Position numbers and translations under genes: made by a program
The notes under the pieces: generated by a model
The model's database searches: none
What the model was told of the DNA's origin: nothing
The model's input: only the letters and a program-made list of their open reading frames with translations
Shown here: positions 1 to 9,154 of the stretch, piece by piece
Position numbering within the stretch: the first letter of the stretch is position 1
Layout of the letters: each line of letters begins with the position of its first letter
Origin: a virus
Taxonomy: Duplodnaviria > Heunggongvirae > Uroviricota > Caudoviricetes
IMG/VR virus record: IMGVR_UViG_2695420871_000007
Reading direction: 5' to 3' (one strand)
Length of the DNA stretch: 9,154 nucleotides

Positions 1-33
1 GTGGAAAGCGGACAGCATCAGTAACGAAAGTAT

Positions 34-366
34 TTAGCGGGCATGAAAATGGCAAATAACGGTCAAACATCGTGGCGTTGACAGAGAAACACGATCCACC
101 CAGAATGTCTCACCATTAATGGTCAGCGTGTCACCACGCCGCACGGCACGAACCGTATCCGTCCGCACAAATAATGACGGGCTGCTTCCTTCAATACGGA
201 CCCCGCTACCGGCAAACCCCAGCGACTCCGGATCGTCAAAAACCCCCTGAACTTCGCTGCCACACTGTGCCCCCGAGGTGAACTGCGCACAGAGCCCCAT
301 CACTTCAACAATCGTTCTGTCCACCCCGGCAAGGGCAGCATCAAAGGAATTCTCAAAATCATGCAT
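34..366 (-). CDS. FII: Head-tail joining protein, lambda gpFII-like
   Basis: 110-aa ORF from the track. From recollection it aligns with lambda FII over most of its length, e.g. shared blocks GVFDDPE, GVR(I/V)EGSSPSLFVRTD and RRGDTLTI followed by FWVDRVS. The start codon overlaps the FI stop by 8 nt, the expected position after FI. Confidence 0.85.
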   Translation of the reverse strand: MHDFENSFDAALAGVDRTIVEVMGLCAQFTSGAQCGSEVQGVFDDPESLGFAGSGVRIEGSSPSLFVRTDTVRAVRRGDTLTINGETFWVDRVSLSTPRCLTVICHFHAR

Positions 367-727
367 AAACGGCCATTCCGCTCCTGACCATGTCTTTTGC
401 CACTGAGGGGGGCATCAGAATTACTCTGCCAGCATCAACATGCTCAACAGGCTCACCTGTTTCATCGTCAACACCGCACAGGTAAAAACACTTCAGAAGC
501 CTGATACGTTCCAGAATACCAACGTCATCCTCACCGGTGTGCCTGCATGCCTGCTCATGAACGGTATCATCAACATCTGCGATTTCATTTTCCGAGGCGC
601 AAACCTCCTCTTCCCACTCTGCCACACGCTGTGCGATATCCGCAGCACTCCCCGACATATCCGCCTCGCGCCCCAGCAGACCAGCCAGTTCACGAAGACG
701 TTTCTGATTTTCTTCTTTTGTTGCCAT
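359..727 (-). CDS. FI: DNA-packaging / head assembly protein, lambda gpFI-like; start moved to the internal ATG at 727
   Basis: The track ORF runs 359..775, but the lambda FI-like sequence begins at Met17 (MATKEENQKRLRELAG vs lambda MTKDELIARLRSLGE). That ATG (727..725) is preceded by a GGGAG Shine-Dalgarno-like motif. The longer start would run through the upstream hairpin and abut the E stop codon. Confidence 0.72.
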   Translation of the reverse strand: MATKEENQKRLRELAGLLGREADMSGSAADIAQRVAEWEEEVCASENEIADVDDTVHEQACRHTGEDDVGILERIRLLKCFYLCGVDDETGEPVEHVDAGRVILMPPSVAKDMVRSGMAVYA

Positions 728-741
728 ATCCAGCTCCCTGT

Positions 742-770
742 GAAAAAAACACGGGGGCATTTCGCCCCCG
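742..770 (-). terminator. Intrinsic-terminator-like hairpin plus U-tract between E and FI
   Basis: Minus-strand transcript reads CGGGGGC-GAAAU-GCCCCCG (7-bp all-GC stem at 764..770 and 752..758, 5-nt loop) followed directly by UGUUUUUUUC (751..742). It lies 8 nt after the E stop codon and just before the FI ribosome-binding site. Confidence 0.5.
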
Positions 771-778
771 CTCACGGA

Positions 779-1807
779 TTATTTCACCTGTACCACCACA
801 AACTCATCCGGATCCGGCAGCACCATCAGCGGCGCGGACTGCGTCATGGTGAATTCACAGGACGGATCGCCCACGGTCAGCCAGTGTTTCGGGTAACGGG
901 AAGAAGCCACCACTCCTTCAGACAACGCCTGTGCATCCTTAATGGCTCCATAGCAACGAATCCCCTCTGCCGCCGTATTCCCCAGCACCAGCGTGCCCTC
1001 CGGCAGATAACGTTTTTCGGTACCGTCCTCTGCCACATAAGACGTTTTCGCTACCACAATAGCCAGATCGCCGTAATACCCCTTGAAGGATACCACTGCG
1101 CCCAGATCTTTCACTGCCGTTTCGAGTTGTGAATTTGAACCGCGACGGGTATCCAGTTTTTCGCGGAAAAGCTTAAAGCCATTCAGCAGACGCCAGACGG
1201 TACCGTCCATAATGGCAATATTCACAAGACCACTGGCCTGATCACAGAAAAGGTCGATATCATATGTCGGGTCGAACGTGTCACGATCCTGTTTTGACCA
1301 CTCCTTACCGCTACCCTGTATGATGTTATTCTTCGTCGATCGGCCAAAATCGACTTCAATTTTCTCGAACTGGTCTCCTTCCATCGTATATTTGCCATAC
1401 AGCACGGCATTCACCGCCTGCATTTCTTCCACCTGCACAATAGCGTGCTCTTCCTGTTTGAGGTTATCAGTGATGATACGCAGACGACGGTAGGCCGGGT
1501 CGTTCAGCTGAGCCGGATCTTCACCGGGAAGGCGTTCAACCGCCTGCTGGTAATTAAATTCGTGTTTCGGCTTGACGTAGCCCGGACGTAACACGCGGGT
1601 TTCACCCCCACGATGACGCAGCACTTTTCCTTCAACGACCGGGGAGACATAGGCCGCCACCGGCGTTTTTCCGGTAATTTTGTCCAGCATCACCTCTTCG
1701 GTGTGGAAATTCACCGTACGGCGGAAAAACAGTTCCAGAAACAGCGCACGAAATTTAACTTTTTGTTCGGTATAACCGAGTAACTGGCGGGTCGTAAACA
1801 ATCCCAT
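779..1807 (-). CDS. E: Major capsid protein, lambda gpE-like
   Basis: 342-aa ORF, near-collinear with lambda E (341 aa) as I recall it. Long shared blocks include PGYVKPKHE, DPAYRR, AIVQVEEMQAV, KGKYTM, EKLDTRRGSNS(Q/E)LETAVKDLG, DPDEFV. An AAGGA Shine-Dalgarno motif sits about 9 nt upstream of the ATG. Confidence 0.93.
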   Translation of the reverse strand: MGLFTTRQLLGYTEQKVKFRALFLELFFRRTVNFHTEEVMLDKITGKTPVAAYVSPVVEGKVLRHRGGETRVLRPGYVKPKHEFNYQQAVERLPGEDPAQLNDPAYRRLRIITDNLKQEEHAIVQVEEMQAVNAVLYGKYTMEGDQFEKIEVDFGRSTKNNIIQGSGKEWSKQDRDTFDPTYDIDLFCDQASGLVNIAIMDGTVWRLLNGFKLFREKLDTRRGSNSQLETAVKDLGAVVSFKGYYGDLAIVVAKTSYVAEDGTEKRYLPEGTLVLGNTAAEGIRCYGAIKDAQALSEGVVASSRYPKHWLTVGDPSCEFTMTQSAPLMVLPDPDEFVVVQVK

Positions 1808-1835
1808 AAATCAGTTCCTTTCATTCAGAAATCAG

Positions 1836-1857
1836 TCAGGCCACCATGGTGGCCTGA
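1836..1857 (-). other. 22-bp perfect palindrome (GC-rich hairpin) in the D-E intergenic spacer
   Basis: tcaggccacca|tggtggcctga is a perfect inverted repeat. In RNA it gives a 9-bp stem with a CAUG loop, 8 nt after the D stop and ahead of the E ribosome-binding site. No strong U-tract follows, so it is not a canonical terminator. Confidence 0.4.
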
Positions 1858-1864
1858 TAACGTG

Positions 1865-2212
1865 TTACGGCAGAGCCGCGTGACTCAGGGCTGTGCCGGC
1901 AAAGGCATTTGCCTTTTTGTGTTCATCCACACTGTCAGGCCAGCGGATTGCCTCCGTCGCAAAGGTCCCCGACTTGTAATAGGTCAGCACCGTCTCTGTG
2001 CCTTCAAGCGGCAGTACCAGTATGCCAACCGCACTACCGGCTTTCTGTCCATCCCAGACCACCAGTTTCCCGGTGGCTTCATCCAGCATCAGGGGCGTCA
2101 GAGCCGGTGTTGCAGAAGAAATCCCGCTGCTGCCTGTGGCGGTATGAGCCGGATCATTACCAGCAAAAATACGTACTTCCGCACGCTGTTCAGTGATGGT
2201 TTTCGTCACCAT
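1865..2212 (-). CDS. D: Head decoration protein, lambda gpD-like
   Basis: 115-aa ORF. Recalled lambda D shares DPAHTAT, PA(L/M)TPLMLD, KLV(V/A)WDG, AAVGIL, YKSGTF and AFAGTA blocks. It sits between C and E as in lambda. A GAGG motif lies about 10 nt upstream of the ATG. Confidence 0.9.
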   Translation of the reverse strand: MVTKTITEQRAEVRIFAGNDPAHTATGSSGISSATPALTPLMLDEATGKLVVWDGQKAGSAVGILVLPLEGTETVLTYYKSGTFATEAIRWPDSVDEHKKANAFAGTALSHAALP

Positions 2213-2248
2213 TTTGTTAAAACCTCATATTGATGGTCAGCACTGACT

Positions 2249-2851
2249 TCATGGCATGGCCATGAGCATTTTCACGTCCGCATCACCGTCTGCTGACGTC
2301 TGTGACACGCCACCCCGCACCGCTGCCGGTGAATGATTCGCCATGAAATGTTCAAACAGGGCGGTTGTGGATGCAGAGACCGGTTCGGCCTTACCTGATC
2401 CCGCAGCCAGCACAGCCCGGGCGTTCTCCACGGTCATTCCCGGGCAGGCCGCCAGTTTTTCAGCCTGCGCTTCTGCCCCTTTTGCCTCATCCAGGGCCAT
2501 GATCTGATCACGAAGTGAGGGCCCGGCATCCGCCAGTGGTGCAGCCGCCAGGATCGGGCGTGCTTTTTCCACCGTCATCTCCGGCATCGCCGCCAGCGTT
2601 GCCGCCAGTTGTTCACGACCTTTCGCTTCTTCACACGCCATAATGCGATCGGCTTCACTCTGCGCGGATGCCACCGGCTGCTGTGGTGCCGCCGCGGCCA
2701 GAATCGCCCGGGCCTGTTCAATGCTCATGCCCTGTTGTCCTGCCAGCATCGTGGCAAGCTGTTCACGTCCTTTCGCTTCCTGACACGTCAGGATCCCCAT
2801 CACTCGCTGGTTCTCCTGCGCGGCAGCTTCCGTTGCAGTTAATTGCGGCAT
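2249..2851 (-). CDS. Nu3: Nested in-frame scaffolding protein, lambda Nu3-like, initiated inside C
   Basis: An in-frame ATG at 2851..2849 is preceded by a perfect AGGAGG Shine-Dalgarno motif with a 4-nt spacer, inside the C reading frame. The position corresponds to the lambda Nu3 start (ours GGTMPQLTAT vs lambda GGRMTKETQST). The 200-aa product carries the scaffold motif RxMGIL..EA.GRE..GMT...AR.ILAAA seen in lambda Nu3. Confidence 0.6.
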   Translation of the reverse strand: MPQLTATEAAAQENQRVMGILTCQEAKGREQLATMLAGQQGMSIEQARAILAAAAPQQPVASAQSEADRIMACEEAKGREQLAATLAAMPEMTVEKARPILAAAPLADAGPSLRDQIMALDEAKGAEAQAEKLAACPGMTVENARAVLAAGSGKAEPVSASTTALFEHFMANHSPAAVRGGVSQTSADGDADVKMLMAMP

Positions 2852-3754
2852 AGTGCCTCCTGTATCATGAGTGTTCAGCGCCGCAGCCATCACGCTGATG
2901 GCATCCGACGCATTGATTAATTCATCCGCCAGCCCGGCCTCAATGCCGGACTGACCTTCAAAAACGGCGGCCTCTGTTCCCGTGACCGCATCCACAGACA
3001 ACCCGGTATACATCGCCACTTTTTCGGCAAACATCCGGTGCGCCGCATCAATCCGCTGCTGCATATCCTGGCGAACCTCTGCCGGCAACGCTTCAAACTG
3101 ATTGCCATCCACCTTGTGCGCCCCGGCATAAATCAGCGTGATATCCACACCGGCCTGCGCCAGATGACCGGCATAGCTGACATGGCTCATCATCACGCCA
3201 ATGGAGCCGATACGGGATGTCTGGGTAACCAGCCGTCGGGAGCAGGCCGACGCCAGCAGCATGGCTGCAGAACAGGCCGTGTCATTGCACAGTGCCCAGA
3301 CCGGCTTCTGCTGACGGAGGCGGTAAATCATGTCAGCGCAGTCAAACGCGCCGGCGGCCTGCCCGCCCGGACTGTCAATGTCCAGCAGTACGCCCCGCAC
3401 CTGGCTATCTGCCATTGCCTGCTGAAGACAGGCGACAATGCCGTCATAGCCTGTCATTCCGGAAAATGGCCGCATACCGCCCAGCCGGTGCACCAGCGTG
3501 CCGGTCACCGGCAGTACAGCAATACCGTTCACCACCCGGTAAACACGGGCCGGTCGTTTACCTCCGGCCATGTACTCGTCCGTTTCAGCCAGCATTCCGG
3601 GAGCATCAAGCTGTACCTGTTGTTGTGGTACCGAAAGACTTGCTGCCCCCATCTCGCGCCCGAGCGCGCAAAAGAAAACCCGCGCATAGGCGGGCTCCAG
3701 AAGCAGCGGTTCATTGAATGCTGCGGCAATAATGTGTGAAAGATTACGTCTCAC
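2249..3754 (-). CDS. C: Prohead protease / minor capsid protein, lambda gpC-like (S49/ClpP-type N-terminal domain fused to a scaffold-type C-terminal domain)
   Basis: 501-aa ORF. The N-terminal two thirds are collinear with recalled lambda C (AFNEPLLLEPAYARVFFCAL, MNGIAVLPV(T/S)GTLV, SGMTGY(D/N)GI, QQA block, GAFDCAD, KPVWAL, SRRLVTQT(S/A)R(I/T)GSIGVMM, ITLIY(A/S)G(A/S)HKVDGN, AYTGLSV, TEAAV). The C-terminal part is scaffold-like and longer than in lambda because of an internal triplication. Confidence 0.88.
   Translation of the reverse strand: MRRNLSHIIAAAFNEPLLLEPAYARVFFCALGREMGAASLSVPQQQVQLDAPGMLAETDEYMAGGKRPARVYRVVNGIAVLPVTGTLVHRLGGMRPFSGMTGYDGIVACLQQAMADSQVRGVLLDIDSPGGQAAGAFDCADMIYRLRQQKPVWALCNDTACSAAMLLASACSRRLVTQTSRIGSIGVMMSHVSYAGHLAQAGVDITLIYAGAHKVDGNQFEALPAEVRQDMQQRIDAAHRMFAEKVAMYTGLSVDAVTGTEAAVFEGQSGIEAGLADELINASDAISVMAAALNTHDTGGTMPQLTATEAAAQENQRVMGILTCQEAKGREQLATMLAGQQGMSIEQARAILAAAAPQQPVASAQSEADRIMACEEAKGREQLAATLAAMPEMTVEKARPILAAAPLADAGPSLRDQIMALDEAKGAEAQAEKLAACPGMTVENARAVLAAGSGKAEPVSASTTALFEHFMANHSPAAVRGGVSQTSADGDADVKMLMAMP
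2393..2806 (-). repeat. Three tandem in-frame copies of a roughly 40-47 aa scaffold motif within C/Nu3
   Basis: Protein repeats: RVMGILTCQEAKGREQLATMLAGQQGMSIEQARAILAAAAPQ; RIMACEEAKGREQLAATLAAMPEMTVEKARPILAAAPLADAG; QIMALDEAKGAEAQAEKLAACPGMTVENARAVLAAGSG. The first two are also visibly similar at DNA level (ctgttcacgtcctttcgcttc near 2760..2780 vs ttgttcacgacctttcgcttc near 2610..2630). Lambda Nu3, as I recall it, has one copy. Confidence 0.65.
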
Positions 3755-5336
3755 GTGGTGTTGTCTCCTCTTCCGGCCTGCGACTCTCCGCTATCTGCTG
3801 CTGATACGCCTGCGCTATCCACACCGGGCGTGAGAGTCCGGCTTTTTCCCGCTCTGCAGATTCCCTGACCTGCTGGCGGAAAATGTCCTGATAATCCTCG
3901 CCCATCAGCGCCAGCTCTTTCTCATACGTGCTCAGTCCGGCCTCAATGCGCATCACTGATTCCTGGACTTCCTTGAGCCCGTCAATGGCCATTCTTCCGG
4001 CACCAATCCACTCTGCCCGTGACCAGGCTGATCGCGCCTGATAAAAATCAAAACGAGCCCGTGGCGGACGAATAATCCCCCGAAGAAGTGCCTCTTCCAG
4101 CCAGCAGGAAAACATCTGCGTGGCCAGTCGGGCCGCAATAAATTTTCGCCGCCCCATAAAATAGCGCCACGACTCATTGGCGGAGGCGCGGGCACTTGAG
4201 TAACTGACCTTCGAGTAATCACGGGACAACTGTTCGTAGGAAACGCCAAGACCGGCGGCGATATACCGCAGCAGCGCCTGTTCAAGCGCCGAAAATCCAT
4301 TGTCTGAATCCTGCGCTGTCTGCAGTTTCAGATCATCACCAGGGAAAAGGTGCGGAATTTTGACACCGCCCAGCGTCACGTGATTCGTGTCATACCAGCT
4401 GGAGAACTTCTCCAGAATATTAATAAGCGGATTATCCTTCTGCCCCTGCGGCGCACCGGCGATATATTCAAAGGCCTTTTCGGTATCCAGTTCACTTTCA
4501 ATCGTCGCTGCATACATCGCCTTCACTATGGCCGACTGAAGCTGTGTTGCCTGCAGGGAATCGAGCATCTTCAGCCGTTCCATGACGCTGTAAAACTGAT
4601 TGGCCCCACGGGTCTGCCCGTCCTCCACCGGCTCGAAAATATGCAGCATGGCCGGACGCCCGGTGGGTAGTTCACGCGGGATCCGTTCCCATCGTCCACT
4701 CCCGGAGCGAGGAAAATCATCCTCACAGATATGGTACGCAACGGCACGGCCATATCGATCGACCTCCACACCGGCCCGCAGAAAACGGTTCCCGATACCG
4801 TGTCCTGGCGTGTCCACCCGTTTCGGACTCACGGCTTTAAAACGCGTACGGAATAACTGCGTGGTTTCCGTATCCCAGACCGGCTGCACAAAGATTTCGC
4901 CGTTAAACGCATGAACGCCCACACCTTCACGGATAAATTCCGTAAACGTGCGTTTCCCTTCCACGTCGATCTCACCAAACATCCCTTCTGCGTATTCTGA
5001 CCAGGCCGCCTCCACCTCATCGACAAAACTTTTTGCCGCGGTCTCCCGCATCCCCAGCCAGCGCCAGTTCGGACGGTAGCTGATAAGAAACATATGCCCG
5101 ACAATGTGATCCTTATGCAGGGCCACCGCATTGGCCGCTATCCCGTTATTGCGCACCAGATCATCTGCCCGGGCATTCCCCAGACGCAACGCGGGCAGCA
5201 GGGCCGCATCGGCACTCTGCGAGGGTGGCAACCACTCCGCCATTTGCCCGCCAAATCCTGCGCCGCCCCCGTTGTAGCTGAGGCTCTCCCGAAGCGGAAC
5301 GCCGTTCACATCAATCAGGACAGGCGTTCGTTTCAT
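3744..5336 (-). CDS. B: Portal protein, lambda gpB-like
   Basis: 530-aa ORF (lambda B is about 533 aa). Shared blocks with recalled lambda B include GNARADDLVRNNG, FEPVEDGQTRGAN(Q/V)FYSVME, KMLD(S/T)LQ, QLQSAIVKAMYAATIESELDT, LRYIAAGLGVSYEQLSR, ARASANESW, GRMAIDGLKEVQE, IEAGLSTYEKE. The start overlaps the W stop (ATGA). Confidence 0.93.
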   Translation of the reverse strand: MKRTPVLIDVNGVPLRESLSYNGGGAGFGGQMAEWLPPSQSADAALLPALRLGNARADDLVRNNGIAANAVALHKDHIVGHMFLISYRPNWRWLGMRETAAKSFVDEVEAAWSEYAEGMFGEIDVEGKRTFTEFIREGVGVHAFNGEIFVQPVWDTETTQLFRTRFKAVSPKRVDTPGHGIGNRFLRAGVEVDRYGRAVAYHICEDDFPRSGSGRWERIPRELPTGRPAMLHIFEPVEDGQTRGANQFYSVMERLKMLDSLQATQLQSAIVKAMYAATIESELDTEKAFEYIAGAPQGQKDNPLINILEKFSSWYDTNHVTLGGVKIPHLFPGDDLKLQTAQDSDNGFSALEQALLRYIAAGLGVSYEQLSRDYSKVSYSSARASANESWRYFMGRRKFIAARLATQMFSCWLEEALLRGIIRPPRARFDFYQARSAWSRAEWIGAGRMAIDGLKEVQESVMRIEAGLSTYEKELALMGEDYQDIFRQQVRESAEREKAGLSRPVWIAQAYQQQIAESRRPEEETTPRET

Positions 5337-5539
5337 AACCTCACTCCCAGCGGACGACGGCGACGCCGGGTTGTCCCCAGTACCGACTCCGCATCATTGA
5401 TCGCCCGGTTAAGCTCATCCAGAGAAGCCGCCGTATATTCAATTCTGCGACCATCTTTCTGGACAGACACCACCCGTTTACCGGTTAATAAATCAAGGCG
5501 CGCCTGACGCAGCGCCTGCAGTTCAGCGACTGTAACCAT
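5333..5539 (-). CDS. W: Head-tail connector / head completion protein, lambda gpW-like
   Basis: 68-aa ORF. It resembles recalled lambda W: L.TGKRV(V/A)(S/T)VQKDGRR(I/V)E(Y/F)TA.S. and the C-terminal RRRxxP(L/A)G. It sits between A and B as in lambda. Confidence 0.85.
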   Translation of the reverse strand: MVTVAELQALRQARLDLLTGKRVVSVQKDGRRIEYTAASLDELNRAINDAESVLGTTRRRRRPLGVRL

Positions 5540-7451
5540 TCACTCCTCCGGACAGCTTCGCTGCCAGTTCTTTAAGGGGTGGCCGGGTCGTCTCTTCTTC
5601 CCGGGATTTTGCCAGTACAGCCAGATCAAGCTGCCAGCGTTGCACGGACACACGTAATGCCGCGTAGGCATACACCAGGCAGTCCAGCGCTTCGTTACGC
5701 CGCTTTTTGTTATCCCACAGCAGACGCATCTTTCCTTTTTCCCACTTCTCCACAAGCTCTTCCGCCACCAGTTGCTGCGCCTCTGTCTGCGAAAAAATCT
5801 CCGGCTCATCAGGAAAACGGATGGCATACGACGTGGCTTCATCCGCAGGCGTGGGATCGGCTTTCATACGGGCATAGAGAATTTCTTTTGCGGTGTCCGT
5901 CCCCACTTCGCACAGATACACGCCCCGCTGATTGCGGGTTTTTGGCATGGTGATCACCGGCTTGCCATAAACAGATGCACCTTTTACCGGCAGCACCCGG
6001 AAAACACCGTGTTTTTTTGACCTCTGATAAACGATTTCGCCATCGATCCCCCCGGTGTCCCAGCAGACACGGGAAATGGTCATCTCGGTGCCATCCGCAT
6101 GGCGGTATTTTTTGTTGATCGCCGCATCCACACGTAACAGCGTCTCTTCCTCATCAGGACGCCCCATAATGATGATTTTATCCACCAGAAAAGCTTCCTC
6201 TCCCGGTGCCCATCCCCAGACATACATCTCAAAACGGTTTCGCTGCGAGTCAATGCCCGCCGTCAGATAAACCACCCGGGCAGGTACCGCCGCCGTATAA
6301 TGCACGACCTTATCCATCAGCACCTGGTGATCAAGTTTTTCGCCCACGGCCTCTTCCCAGGTCTCGCCCAGCGTGGTGTTCACAAAGGTTTTCACGCCGT
6401 TGGGATCTTTCAGTGCATCCAGCCAGTCATAGACTATCTGTACCCAGGTGGTAAACGGACTGTACGCCGTCCAGATATGGAACGTGATGGAGCGCGGCGG
6501 CGGAATTTCATTACCCGCAGCGCTGAAAAACGTCAGACCGTCACGGGTCCACATGCCCGTGTTTTCACAGATCCACCGCCCGTTGCTCTGGTCCAGTTCA
6601 GACTGATGGATCACGCAGCCATGATGTTCACAGAGGTAGAAAACACTTTCGGGACTGTCCTTCTCCCATTTAAGCCCAAAAGGCGTGGACTCATCGCCAA
6701 ATTTCAGATACTGCTCCTCCCCACAGTGTGGGCAGGGCACATAAAAACGCATAAAATGCGCCGACTCGTTGGCCGCTTTTTCGATCTGGCAGGTGCCTTT
6801 GATTTTAGGCGTCGAGCCGCGAATGGATTTGGGCCATACAGAGCCCTCAATACGTTTATCCCCAAGCAGGGTTGGCGACCCCTCTTTTTCGACATCCGGT
6901 TCGAACGAGGAAAGTTCGTCATAGCAGACCACGTCCACGGATTTTTCACGGTAGTTTTTAGCGGCAGCCCCGCCCAGGCACCAGAAGCCCACGCCCGATG
7001 AAAAACGTTTCAGCGTGAGGGTATTATCACGATGTTTACGACCCAGCCATGGGGAAAGGTCTTTCAGGCATGGCACATCCCGAATCGTCGCCTCCACGTG
7101 AGACTTCATAAAATCTTCAGCGGCAGAATCCGTGGGCTGAAAAAGCAGACTGTTTCGTGATTTATGCTCAATAAAATACCCGACCACCCCCAGCAACATC
7201 TTTGTATAGCCAACACGGGCAGATTTAATCAGGTTAACCGTGCGAACCTGGTCGTTACCCATACAGTTCATAATGGCGACCTGGAACGGCAGCGTTTTCC
7301 ATTCTCCCTCACCATATGAAGATTCTTTAGGCAGATAATAATTTTGATCAGCCCATTCAACTGGCGTCACCGGCAATGCCCTTATCAGGGGCTGTAATGC
7401 TGTTGTGACAGCACTCATCATATTATTCAGTTGTTGCTCTGATATATTCAT
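5523..7451 (-). CDS. A: Terminase large subunit, lambda gpA-like; start moved to the internal ATG at 7451
   Basis: The track ORF is 661 aa from 7508, but lambda-type A begins MNIS..., which here is Met20 (ATG at 7451..7449), giving 642 aa versus about 641 in lambda. Extensive shared blocks: VEWAD.NYYLPKES, TLPFQ.AIMN.MG, SARVGY(T/S)KMLLGV, KKHRDNTLT.KRF, GFWCLGG.AAKNYREKSVDV, EGSPT(L/F)LGDKRIEGSVWPKSIRGSTPK, CPHCGEEQYLKFGD, FHIWTAYSPFTTWVQIV, KTFVNTTLGETWE, YLTAGIDSQ, CWDTGGID, KGASVYGKPV, WD.KKRRNEALDC.VYA.AALR.S.QRWQLDL. Confidence 0.93.
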   Translation of the reverse strand: MNISEQQLNNMMSAVTTALQPLIRALPVTPVEWADQNYYLPKESSYGEGEWKTLPFQVAIMNCMGNDQVRTVNLIKSARVGYTKMLLGVVGYFIEHKSRNSLLFQPTDSAAEDFMKSHVEATIRDVPCLKDLSPWLGRKHRDNTLTLKRFSSGVGFWCLGGAAAKNYREKSVDVVCYDELSSFEPDVEKEGSPTLLGDKRIEGSVWPKSIRGSTPKIKGTCQIEKAANESAHFMRFYVPCPHCGEEQYLKFGDESTPFGLKWEKDSPESVFYLCEHHGCVIHQSELDQSNGRWICENTGMWTRDGLTFFSAAGNEIPPPRSITFHIWTAYSPFTTWVQIVYDWLDALKDPNGVKTFVNTTLGETWEEAVGEKLDHQVLMDKVVHYTAAVPARVVYLTAGIDSQRNRFEMYVWGWAPGEEAFLVDKIIIMGRPDEEETLLRVDAAINKKYRHADGTEMTISRVCWDTGGIDGEIVYQRSKKHGVFRVLPVKGASVYGKPVITMPKTRNQRGVYLCEVGTDTAKEILYARMKADPTPADEATSYAIRFPDEPEIFSQTEAQQLVAEELVEKWEKGKMRLLWDNKKRRNEALDCLVYAYAALRVSVQRWQLDLAVLAKSREEETTRPPLKELAAKLSGGVNGYSR

Positions 7452-7932
7452 CGAGTAAATCCGGTAATTTATCCCCTGCCCGCGCACACTGATTTGCCCC
7501 CTTCGCAATAAGGGTTTTCAGATGGTCAAGATGGCGTGGTGTTAAATCAGGAAACTGTCGTTGCATGGATAAAGGGATGGAATCAAGCGTACTGGATAAC
7601 GCCATTGCCAGCTTGCTGAGGGCAAAAATACAGAACCCGGTGTCAATAAGTTTTCCTTTTGACACCTCATTTTTTAACTGCTGTGTAACAGCCTGTTCTG
7701 CTGTCAGTTCCCATCTGGCAATAAGCAATTTTTCCTCATAGTCGTCTTCGCTATCGCCATCAGGCACATCGTTTTTACTTCTTCTCAGATACGATATGTA
7801 AAAATCGCGCCAGGCATCCAGATCCAGTTGCCCTCGCTTATTCGATATCGGGGCACCCGGCAATTTCTGCAATCTGCGAAGCTGGCGATCGGTCAGACTT
7901 AAATGCCTGGCAACTTCAGTCTGCGTAGCCAC
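7423..7932 (-). CDS. Nu1: Terminase small subunit, lambda gpNu1-like (N-terminal HTH DNA-binding domain, C-terminal gpA-interaction region)
   Basis: 169-aa ORF with an apparent GTG start at 7932..7930; a GAGG motif lies 6 nt upstream. The C-terminal half matches recalled lambda Nu1 (T(G/A)FC.F.LS..A....S.LD..PLS.QR.FP.L..RH.D.LK and ...LL.EYI). The N-terminal part diverges but keeps the pattern of a DNA-binding helix-turn-helix. The 3' end overlaps the A start by about 29 nt, as in lambda. Confidence 0.85.
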   Translation of the reverse strand: MATQTEVARHLSLTDRQLRRLQKLPGAPISNKRGQLDLDAWRDFYISYLRRSKNDVPDGDSEDDYEEKLLIARWELTAEQAVTQQLKNEVSKGKLIDTGFCIFALSKLAMALSSTLDSIPLSMQRQFPDLTPRHLDHLKTLIAKGANQCARAGDKLPDLLDEYIRATTE

Positions 7933-7972
7933 TCCTCACCTCGCAAAAACTCTCACCTCACAATCACAACAA

Positions 7973-8048
7973 AACCGGTCATGTCCGGTTCACAGAAGAC
8001 CTGTTTTTATATTTTTCATATAGTTAACTTGAAGATAAACCGGACATG
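7973..8048. repeat. cosB-position repeat set: three copies of an 11-bp motif AACCGGWCATG (candidate terminase small-subunit binding elements) flanking an AT-rich tract
   Basis: AACCGGTCATG at 7973..7983 (top strand), AACCGGACATG at 7980..7990 (bottom strand, overlapping the first to form a near-palindrome) and AACCGGACATG at 8038..8048 (top strand). The interval 7991..8037 is AT-rich. They sit between cosN and the Nu1 start, where lambda has R3-I1-R2-R1. Confidence 0.5.
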
Positions 8049-8130
8049 GATCCAGGAAAATTTTCATAAATAGCGAAAACCCGCGAGGTCGCCGCCCCGT
8101 AACCGGTCGGATCGCCGGAAAGGACTCACG
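8045..8130. other. Cohesive-end site (cos): cosN 12-nt overhang at 8086..8097 with lambda-like flanks
   Basis: The reverse complement of 8045..8097 reads GGGCGGCGACCTCGCGGGTTTTCGCTATTTATGAAAATTTTCC, which as I recall is the first 43 nt of the lambda genome (cosN overhang GGGCGGCGACCT plus the proximal flank). The far side (8098..8130, reverse complement ...GGCGATCCGACCGGTTACG) also resembles my recollection of the lambda right terminus (...GATCCGACAGGTTACG). Confidence 0.85.
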
Positions 8131-8132
8131 AA

Positions 8133-8149
8133 ATGATAATTATTATCAT
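8133..8149. promoter_or_regulatory. 17-bp perfect palindrome ATGATAAT-t-ATTATCAT, Fur-box-like (GATAAT/ATTATC hexamers); candidate operator
   Basis: Perfect 8-bp arms around a central T. TGATAATtATTATC matches the 3' 14 nt of the classic 19-bp Fur consensus GATAATGATAATCATTATC at 13 of 14 positions by my hand count. It is followed by TATATAAG, a possible -10 region. Function is not established. Confidence 0.3.
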
Positions 8150-8303
8150 CTATATAAGGTTTATCACAACATGTGTGTACGCCATCAAACCACGAGAAAT
8201 AATCAATTATGACGCAGGTATCGTATTAATTGATCTGCATCAAATTAACGTAAAAGCAACTTCAGATAATACAAATCAGCAACACTGAATATGGGGAAAC
8301 ATT

Positions 8304-8489
8304 ATGTCATCAAAGAACAGAACCCGCAGAACAACAACCCGCAACATCCGATTTCCAAACCAGATGATTGAACAAATTAACATCGCTCTTGATCTGAAAG
8401 GTTCAGGAAACTTTTCAGCGTGGGTTATTGAAGCCTGCAGAAGAAGGCTGTCAACAGAGAGTTCGGGTATGAATTACATAATTAAGTAA
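8304..8489 (+). CDS. Small basic ribbon-helix-helix-like protein (61 aa), possibly of the YlcI/YnfO type found next to nohD/nohA in E. coli cryptic prophages; likely DNA-binding accessory (moron) gene
   Basis: The ORF has a GGGGAA Shine-Dalgarno-like motif 5 nt upstream of the ATG. After a basic N-terminal tail (KNRTRRTTTR) comes IRFPNQMIEQINIALDL....GNFSAWVIEACRRRL, the strand-helix-helix pattern of Arc/CopG-type repressors. Its position next to cos and Nu1, on the opposite strand to the late genes, matches where ylcI and ynfO lie in DLP12 and Qin. Family assignment is from memory only. Confidence 0.6.
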   Translation: MSSKNRTRRTTTRNIRFPNQMIEQINIALDLKGSGNFSAWVIEACRRRLSTESSGMNYIIK

Positions 8490-8621
8490 CATGGTGTTCA
8501 CAGAACACGCAGTTACCGGACACATCAGTTTTCCATTCGCTCCCTGGCAGTACAGGCTTCCCCTCTGACGGGATAGCCTGAAAAAATAACACAGAAAATT
8601 ATTTGTTATAATTAATATAAC

Positions 8622-8762
8622 TTACTCAAAAAAAAGCGACGAGAAAATCAGCATCAACGAACAATAAGCGCCAATACGTGATAACAAATGGCAGCCATAT
8701 TTATCTGCAGTATAAGCAATGGACAGGATAACCACACCAGAAACCGTCAGCATAAAATCCAT
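8622..8762 (-). CDS. Unlisted small ORF (46 codons) encoding a predicted two-helix hydrophobic membrane peptide
   Basis: Hand translation of the minus strand: ATG(8762..8760) GAT TTT ATG ... GAG TAA(8624..8622) gives MDFMLTVSGVVILSIAYTADKYGCHLLSRIGAYCSLMLIFSSLFFE. A GGGGAAG Shine-Dalgarno-like motif lies 5 nt upstream. Two hydrophobic stretches are separated by a short polar DKYGCH..SR turn. It is below the size cutoff of the supplied ORF track and is in the late-operon orientation. No homolog recognised. Confidence 0.35.
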   Translation of the reverse strand: MDFMLTVSGVVILSIAYTADKYGCHLLSRIGAYCSLMLIFSSLFFE

Positions 8763-9018
8763 TTGAACTTCCCCGGACAAAATCGACTCATCTAAAGATT
8801 TACAGCTCTTTTTATTATTAATATGTTAAAAGCAAAATAAACAGATGTTCAATAACACGAATACAAAAACGTGCTGAAATTCAATGAATCCATTTCTGTG
8901 TCATCAATTAATAGTGATAAACATCCGGCTTCTTCCACCATCGCACCGGACAGGCGACTATGAGGGGACAACGCCGCGCTCCGTTAACGCGGTAAACCCC
9001 GGTGTGTATCGTTTTTGA

Positions 9019-9154
9019 TTATCCCCGCACACTCGCGCAGAGGAGTCTCCCTGTCGGGCTGCGGTCTCTGTTAATGAGGGAATACAGCGACGATACGGCG
9101 CATTGAGGTGTACTGGCAATAGCGGACACTACCATTTGTTCTTTTTTTAAGCAG
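9019..9154 (-). CDS. Possible 3' end of a minus-strand gene entering from beyond the window (unidentified)
   Basis: One minus-strand frame is open from the window edge to a TAA at 9021..9019 (...KKEQMVVSAIASTPQCAVSSLYSLINRDRSPTGRLLCASVRG*). This region is more GC-rich than the adjacent AT-rich tract. No recognisable homology; it could equally be non-coding. Confidence 0.2.
   Translation of the reverse strand, partial: CLKKEQMVVSAIASTPQCAVSSLYSLINRDRSPTGRLLCASVRG

Follow-up and report, generated by a model that had tools for sequence, protein, structure and literature searches.

What fills the DNA beyond the cohesive-end site (cos) of a lambdoid prophage, and how much of it is lineage-specific cargo, is the question raised by the last part of a 9,154-nucleotide stretch of a Caudoviricetes virus (IMG/VR record IMGVR_UViG_2695420871_000007), referred to as a whole as the window. 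An earlier note, made from the letters of the window alone, had taken positions 8098-9154 for an AT-rich accessory region and for the most probable seat of any undescribed function. For comparison we used phage records, the complete genomes of E. coli, contigs from IMG/VR and genomes from GTDB. The best explanation, to which we give a probability of roughly 0.7 for its parts taken jointly (the spacer and ylcI regulator, the cargo, the RNA element and the IS600 end), is that the interval represents the lysis-to-cos segment, or right arm, of a lambda-type prophage, seen here on the strand antisense to the late genes, and that it is a mosaic in which conserved backbone is combined with one small cargo slot. 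The region as such is ordinary, a further mosaic variant of the familiar right arm of lambda.

Organization of the lysis-to-cos arm

The location of the interval between the lysis genes and cos of a lambdoid prophage, already proposed in the earlier note, was confirmed by comparison with lambda and DLP12, whose right arms display the order Rz - bor - ybcV/lambdap78 - ybcW/lambdap79 - ylcI homologue - cos - Nu1/nohD. The window shares with them, in the same order and orientation, cos, a spacer, an antisense ylcI-type gene, a variable slot, a 188-nt element and the lysis genes. It is 88% identical to lambda over 8055-8438, and 8055-8446 is common to lambda, DLP12-like and Qin-like prophages at 87-95% identity; some part of 8050-9154 was matched in 4936 of the 5426 complete E. 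coli genomes. Judged from these alignments, most of the interval is a conserved syntenic backbone shared with lambda. The relatives present recurring break-points at 8055/8057, 8295/8303, 8438-8458, 8916-8924 (8987 in some of them) and 9103/9111, and 8295-9103 moves as a unit, being also found beside a different packaging module formed by an HNH endonuclease and a small terminase (TerS) of the Terminase_2 type. Conserved synteny free of insertion boundaries, the outcome expected if the interval were not accessory, was found for roughly half of its length and not for the other half.

The exchangeable half is less extended than the cargo hotspot initially proposed: the slot exists and houses different genes in relatives, but just ~470 bp (8447-8915, no strand assigned) are exchangeable, the rest being conserved. 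The joints of this AT-rich segment of low diversity lie within the 3' end of ylcI (8438-8458) on the left and at 8916-8924 on the right, and recur across more than 100 loci. The same slot is occupied by ybcW and ybcV (DUF1398) in lambda and DLP12, by a DUF1398 gene in Qin-like loci, by a TonB_C lipoprotein gene in locus L113 and by PerC in locus L098. Unlike lambda and DLP12, the window displays in place of ybcW and ybcV a 470-bp segment with an orphan open reading frame (ORF) of 46 codons, and no bor is visible. Among 34 haplotypes, the cargo has 0.04-0.08 variable sites per nt, compared with 0.16-0.17 in ylcI and in the 8924-9104 block, a low polymorphism that fits a recent insertion of single origin. 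As far as the alignments indicate, 8447-8915 is the only real cargo in the interval, young and exchangeable.

Morons of lambdoid phages (Juhala et al. 2000, as cited in PMC4104026) offer the closest comparison for this segment. DNA present or absent with respect to collinear relatives and deviant in composition was found at 8447-8915 only, and this segment is moron-like as extra lower-GC DNA, with one small ORF that runs antisense to the operon logic of neither neighbour, between elements that are adjacent or otherwise filled in relatives. It differs from morons by the lack of a convincing promoter/terminator pair, the scans remaining at shuffle level with a best minus-strand promoter by eye of 8/12, and by an ORF devoid of homologues outside E. 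coli and of a coding signature. This 46-codon ORF (8622-8762, minus strand), annotated in relatives as a RefSeq hypothetical protein (WP_000347013.1), would encode a product with two hydrophobic stretches. Its homologues among 5.8e9 proteins are 13 near-identical sequences, all from E. coli, and no match was obtained in Pfam, PHROG, PADLOC or NCBIfam. Its 6 variable sites are split 2/2/2 over the codon positions, with an indel and a start-codon change among them. It may or may not be a gene, and the cargo segment is probably inert.

Single-sequence folding of the spacers was uninformative except at 8487-8625, between the convergent ylcI and 46-codon ORF, which folds somewhat better than its shuffles whichever strand is taken (z about -2.1). 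This stretch holds a hairpin just past the ylcI stop (GTGTTC-ACA-GAACAC) and another one formed by CAGGCU...AGCCUG, neither of them followed by a U-run. A scan for tRNA and tmRNA genes found none.

The interval starts just past cosN, the 12-nt cohesive-end sequence (8086-8097), recognized by AGGTCGCCGCCC, the exact reverse complement of lambda GGGCGGCGACCT; its neighbourhood aligns with the lambda cos region. On the cosB side, a Nu1-type small terminase gene (7423-7932, minus strand; Pfam Phage_Nu1, E 1e-18), whose RefSeq relatives are annotated as terminase small subunit, reads away from cos, and the large terminase gene, a lambda-type late gene, is at 5523-7508 (minus strand). The region 7738-8054, which takes in the N-terminal portion of Nu1 together with the cosB side of cos, is unmatched in many relatives that match 7402-7737 (84-90%) and resume at 8055/8057. 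From these alignments it appears to be exchanged as a module of its own, as would be the case if the DNA-binding domain of Nu1 co-varied with the sites that it binds.

The composition beyond cos had been described as AT-rich, following an abrupt switch at cos. AT-richness was retrieved over 8098-8915, where the G + C content (GC) is 0.36-0.41 versus 0.56 in the structural genes (0.558 over 1-7000, 0.364 over 8098-8303, 0.409 over ylcI at 8304-8489 and 0.362 over 8447-8915), but does not extend to 8916-9103, a GC-rich exception at 0.574. The switch is neither abrupt nor located at cos: GC declines from near 7050, with values of 0.43-0.48 through Nu1 (0.465 for this gene) and 0.399 over 7933-8085. 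The count of a single ORF of at least 60 aa beyond cos was correct, the only one being that of 61 aa at 8304-8489.

ylcI, its product and the adjoining spacer

This ORF belongs to the ylcI/ynfO family (8304-8489, plus strand; RefSeq WP_001329960.1), a ylcI-like gene being among those that the earlier note had guessed. Its product matches the profiles DUF3950 (67.5 bits for a cut-off of 25) and NF041551 (35.2 bits for a cut-off of 30), and is 98% identical to proteins named YlcI/YnfO in the sources. Judged by its pattern of variation, ylcI is a real gene under purifying selection, because 22 of the 32 variable sites among the 34 haplotypes are at third codon positions and the changes are mostly synonymous. 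In lambda, the corresponding position is occupied by the gene for a 64-aa homologue, annotated only as "hypothetical protein" in record PV340536.1, with a common N-terminal core extending from 'NRTRRTTTRNIRFPNQMIEQINIAL' to 'KGSGNFSAWVIEACRRRL'. Residues 1-50 of YlcI are almost invariant, the tail past residue 50 is variable among lineages, and the mosaic joint falls in this tail.

The family is small, with 187 representatives (at 50% identity) in a set of 1.84 billion proteins. It is confined to Escherichia and Shigella, apart from distant members (45-56% identity) found in Xenorhabdus and in one Clostridia metagenome-assembled genome (MAG), a range given exclusive of lambda spike-in DNA in unrelated assemblies. 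Around 30 assemblies (from Streptomyces, Cohnella, Pseudomonas, Flavobacterium, MAGs and others; L008-L034, L038-L040, L042-L047) carry lambda DNA, often on contigs of ~3.5 kb or ~48.4 kb with the ylcI homologue ~200-390 nt from the contig end, and this looks like leftover sequencing spike-in or control DNA. Several low-identity "family members" of the protein libraries likewise resemble error-ridden copies of the lambda protein. A divergent DUF3950 gene is also found ~440 bp downstream of cdtABC (cytolethal distending toxin), adjoining transposase genes (L143 1330-4189), another case of this family beside prophage cargo.

The structure model of YlcI predicts a ribbon-helix-helix (RHH) fold over residues ~13-50, followed by the variable C-terminal tail; the modelled N-terminal strand and the two helices after it superpose on solved RHH domains. 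Searches against established RHH families gave no significant match in Pfam RHH or among PDB chains, the best PDB profile hit, a CopG-family RHH, reaching E 0.07; further matches below significance were RHH_6 (E 0.09, in one member) and a HicB-like PHROG (E 0.012). A profile of close homologues had no matches among PDB sequences, and Foldseek of the model against PDB returned nothing significant, TCP domains being the best at E ~4. On the basis of the model, we regard YlcI, with moderate confidence, as a minimal RHH DNA-binding domain. Small RHH repressors and antitoxin domains (Arc and Mnt of P22, CopG, omega, TacA, ParD and the PutA N-domain) have no counterpart of its variable tail.

The genomic context of ylcI is consistent among viruses: long flanking ORFs are on the opposite strand on both sides of the gene in 64 of 80 viral contigs, and in 10 further contigs on the sole side with data. 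Homologues also occur in phage satellites of E. coli and Xenorhabdus, where they too run antisense to the operon around them. The E. coli satellite (L133/L134) contains integrase, AlpA, D5-type primase, TerS and capsid genes, and the Xenorhabdus one AlpA, AntA and primase genes. A 2026 survey lists YlcI/YnfO among accessory genes of Enterobacter capsid-forming phage-inducible chromosomal islands (cf-PICIs), with no function assigned (PMC13612085). In both genera, the satellite homologue directly follows a 12-bp palindrome, TGGTACGTACCA, present twice with a spacing of 33 bp (L133 4545-4589 in E. coli; L048 4912-4960 in Xenorhabdus), the second copy overlapping the start codon. Such a pair resembles the operator layout of a dimeric repressor, to which it may bind.

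The E. coli satellite moreover encodes a protein of 120 aa (P0264, L133 5001-5363) in which a YlcI/DUF3950 domain is fused to a copy of a TerS N-terminus, 66% identical to residues 1-53 of the small terminase (Terminase_2 type) of the HNH/HK97-type prophage L113 (3742-4305), the remainder of TerS being absent. This protein could be a decoy or competitor at the packaging site of the helper.

Since ylcI is antisense to the flanking late genes, it is not expressible from the late promoter. Considering the predicted fold, this orientation and the analogy with known repressors, the most likely role of YlcI would be that of a small repressor-type regulator, independent of the late promoter and produced, probably in lysogenic cells, from a promoter of its own. 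If it behaves like Arc, Mnt, CopG and TacA, a YlcI dimer would insert a two-stranded beta-ribbon, to which the conserved RNIRFP strand contributes, into the major groove of DNA, and would autoregulate its gene and control a nearby promoter.

The 206-bp non-coding spacer between cosN and ylcI (8098-8303, no strand assigned) is 88% identical to lambda (176 of 199 positions), compared with 71% for the third codon positions of ylcI; this higher conservation than at neighbouring synonymous sites argues for selection, and constraint on the spacer is shown at the level of these alignments. Two features of the spacer are candidate operator-like repeats, a 17-bp palindrome at 8133-8149 (ATGATAAT-T-ATTATCAT) and a 13-nt inverted repeat at 8202-8234 (ATCAATTATGACG/CGTATTAATTGAT). 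A cosQ-like heptamer is also present, as AGGACTC at 8121-8127, the reverse complement of GAGTCCT; this is the reading at the aligned cosQ position and has one mismatch to the lambda heptamer, which we take to be GGGTCCT, located ~25-30 bp from cosN on the side away from Nu1.

A 51-aa ORF of the spacer (8133-8288, phrog_9395), called by automated pipelines, was rejected as a gene: it has no coding signature, its codon-phase distribution being unbiased (6/3/5), and a 7-nt indel shifts its frame. At 8156-8162, inside the conserved spacer, the window has a 7-nt insertion (TAAGGTT) with respect to lambda and all other aligned relatives. This insertion creates two promoter-like matches on the minus strand, TTGTGA-16-GATAAT and GTGATA-17-AATAAT, directed to cos and Nu1.

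Several results weaken the case for YlcI as a repressor. The search for sigma-70 promoters upstream of ylcI gave none that was convincing (4 sites versus 2.8±2.0 in shuffles), no operator was identified for the lambda-type YlcI, the satellite palindrome being absent from the window, and a literature search on ylcI, ynfO and DUF3950 found no functional study. KilA-N and Ant genes are frequent neighbours of ylcI loci. A control of a nearby antirepressor in the manner of P22 Mnt and Arc was for this reason considered but not adopted, as lambda, DLP12 and the nearest relative of the window lack a KilA-N or Ant gene.

The conserved element at 8916-9103

The segment adjoining the cargo on its other side, 8916-9103, is a conserved non-coding element of 188 nt, a candidate structured RNA of the minus strand (late-transcript sense) on the basis of covariation and G·U asymmetry. 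It was found in 398 phage records at 75-100% identity, located between ybcV (lambdap78) and bor in lambda and between borD and ybcV in DLP12, and present as well in phages carrying Shiga-toxin genes (Stx1 and Stx2 phages), in mEp460, in SPN3UB and in many prophage contigs. A covariance model of the element scored 141-222 bits over this whole set, lambda and DLP12 reaching 141-146 bits. One side is bordered by the Rz stop codon (closest relative), a KilA-N gene or the bor promoter region (lambda, Stx1 phage), and the other by ybcV, the ylcI cargo or terminase genes. As these neighbours vary from phage to phage, the element is a discrete module with sharp ends.

No ORF of the element is conserved on either strand, indels breaking every frame in several lineages, and the variable columns have no 3-nt periodicity (22/20/22). 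The minus-strand ORF at 8958-9119, which matches phrog_6954 ('Rz-like spanin', E 3e-16), was consequently not retained as a gene: it is broken in many copies, including those of lambda, SPN3UB, L007, L041 and L044, and because the element is non-coding the PHROG label is unreliable.

The fold predicted by RNAalifold on 34 diverse copies, in late-transcript sense, comprises a helix P1 (GUAUCGU/ACGAUAC) enclosing P2 (UAUUCCC/GGGGAUA plus 4 bp) with a small hairpin inside; the 3' part consists of a short helix and then a 3' hairpin (GUCCGGU...GCCGGAU) with an invariant GGAAGAA loop. In this alignment, 96.5% of the cells are paired and 11 pairs (22 cells) are changed on both sides, compared with 3.6 (4.8) in shuffles, a level reached in 0 of 500 shuffles; slid controls of the helices pair at just 33-50%. 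At least five different and perfectly complementary versions of the 9-bp P2 stem were found. The fold is assigned to the minus strand because the same helices pair better on it and with more G·U: 96.5% paired with 121 G·U cells, versus 85.7% with 8 G·U cells on the plus strand, and an initial plus-strand fold was superseded for this reason. Watson-Crick pairs alternate with G·U in 17 cases and with A·C in 5, and unpaired columns have no transition bias (17 C/T versus 13 A/G).

The most economical reading of this covariation is that the element may be a cis-acting structured segment of the late transcript. Most likely it folds as part of the polycistronic late mRNA, at a point between the lysis genes and those for packaging. 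It would probably act in cis on this transcript, and a weakly supported suggestion is that it might serve, for instance, the processing, stability or insulation of a long untranslated stretch. Neither a promoter nor a terminator belonging to the element was found. Rfam 15, searched at permissive thresholds (E up to 10), gave for the copies of the window and DLP12 only chance hits to eukaryotic miRNA and snoRNA families (E 0.28-7.9).

Known prophage non-coding RNAs (the AgvB/AsxR anti-sRNAs, where sRNA stands for small RNA, the Pas sRNAs, STnc100, and the 6S-like and put RNAs) share with the element, a non-coding candidate, their occurrence in lambdoid prophages of E. coli and Shigella. These sRNAs sit downstream of PR' and Q or near holin genes (PMC4104026; bioRxiv 10.64898/2026.05.13.724894). 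The element differs by its location between lysis and packaging genes, by its greater length (188 nt) and by the lack of a match in Rfam. Locus L153 contains two full copies ~950 bp apart (5055-5242 and 6005-6192), and L180 a second and far more divergent copy (10718-10855, 49.9 bits).

In the nearest relatives the element directly adjoins Rz, whereas in the window IS600 is inserted at its edge. The last 51 nt of the window (9104-9154), included until now in the presumed phage accessory DNA, are the end of this insertion sequence of the IS3 family: its terminal inverted repeat, with TGAGGTGTACTGGCAATAGCGGACAC beginning at 9104 and starting with TG, and the 3' end of its transposase gene (minus strand), directly at the 5' edge of the element. 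Homology to every relative stops at 9103-9111, and the window aligns through 9154 with L004, into an annotated 'IS3-like element IS600 family transposase'. The exact IS600 junction of the window occurs in no complete E. coli genome of the collection, and the best full-length E. coli matches are 93% identical because of a 12-nt offset of IS600. The IS600 end separates the arm from whatever lay upstream; the other end of the element and its target duplication fall beyond the window. L004 (5250-5293) carries an independent IS600 copy 12 nt further in, which removes the 5' strand of helix P1; the two insertions are in prophages with different packaging modules, and IS600 may have a target preference at the 5' edge of the element.

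Alternative explanations and significance

The proposal that the whole interval past cos is horizontally acquired, lineage-specific moron cargo with an undescribed accessory function can invoke the AT-rich composition, the differing genes of relatives between ylcI and the lysis genes, and the sharp mosaic joints and low diversity of 8447-8915. It conflicts with the sharing of 8055-8446 among lambda, DLP12 and Qin-like prophages, with the presence of 8916-9103 in hundreds of phage records and with the matches to part of the region in most complete E. coli genomes; the sole cargo ORF is an orphan with no coding signal, and the final nucleotides belong to IS600. This proposal is already refuted by the comparative alignments for about half of the interval, and we regard it as improbable. 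An even lower probability is given to a toxin-antitoxin pair, in which YlcI would be the RHH antitoxin and the hydrophobic 46-aa protein a membrane toxin. The two genes are convergent and not co-transcribed, and in most loci (lambda, DLP12, Qin-like, L098, L113 and satellites) ylcI is not accompanied by the 46-codon ORF; on these grounds of orientation and co-occurrence a type II system was rejected. In RHH antitoxins it is the C-terminal tail that binds the toxin, and this tail is not conserved in YlcI; the presumed toxin gene has no codon-position bias, and the PADLOC defence models gave no hit. A role of YlcI at the packaging site, by binding beside cos and modulating terminase access, cos cleavage or packaging termination, is marginally better placed and still unlikely. 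It is favoured by the location of ylcI 206 bp from cosN in lambda-type phages, by the conservation of the intervening non-coding DNA beyond that of synonymous sites and by the fusion of a YlcI domain to a TerS copy in P0264, but that fusion could merely combine two DNA-binding modules. Moreover, in HNH/HK97-type prophages ylcI is separated from the terminase genes by an HNH gene, the satellite homologue is in the int-alpA-primase region, far from terS, and cos fragments of a few hundred bp devoid of ylcI suffice for trans-complemented cosmid packaging.

The element at 8916-9103 raises a comparable alternative, that of an element acting as DNA (a recombination linker maintained through frequent exchange of modules, a protein site, or a hairpin signal of single-stranded DNA, for instance for priming) or of a decayed gene. 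We hold it for unlikely, but with a distinctly larger share of probability than the three preceding proposals. Its position exactly at mosaic joints and its sharply defined ends fit a DNA-level role, and the match of its minus-strand ORF to phrog_6954 fits a decayed gene. The structured RNA is also called into question by single-sequence folding energies no better than those of shuffles (z -0.84 and 0.18), by relatedness through descent, which inflates the shuffle statistics, and by the tolerance of G·T pairs in single-stranded DNA hairpins, which would give the same asymmetry, so that the strand bias cannot separate RNA from single-stranded DNA. The larger alignment of 70 distinct copies (97.4% paired, with 14 pairs and 41 cells changed on both sides) is similarly affected, as it was derived from the structure model and leans towards that structure. 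Against the DNA-level role are the compensatory changes in 11-14 pairs and the five perfectly complementary versions of P2, and a linker or a duplex protein site would not yield the excess of G·U over A·C alternations in the absence of a transition bias in unpaired columns. The decayed gene is opposed by the broken ORF in several lineages, lambda among them, and by the absence of 3-nt periodicity.

The structured segment of the late transcript and the YlcI repressor are retained as the preferred readings of the two components. What they add to existing annotation are computational inferences: the RHH assignment and consistent context of DUF3950, and a candidate RNA structure in lambda and K-12. 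Tentatively, and at slightly below even odds for both taken together, YlcI/YnfO would form a new minimal RHH regulator family of lambdoid phages and satellites, possibly acting at or near cos, and the element would be an undescribed and widely conserved structured RNA of lambdoid phages, active inside the late transcript between lysis and packaging genes, for instance in processing, stability or anti-termination.

Phage biology takes lambda and E. coli K-12 as its reference systems. If true, a structured RNA so far unannotated and conserved in hundreds of lambdoid phages, those with Shiga toxin among them, would be a further component of late gene expression. The predicted RHH fold, the antisense context and the satellite palindromes give a concrete hypothesis for the DUF3950 "y-gene" family ylcI/ynfO, and YlcI may link lambdoid phages with cf-PICI and P4-like satellites through a common small regulator.

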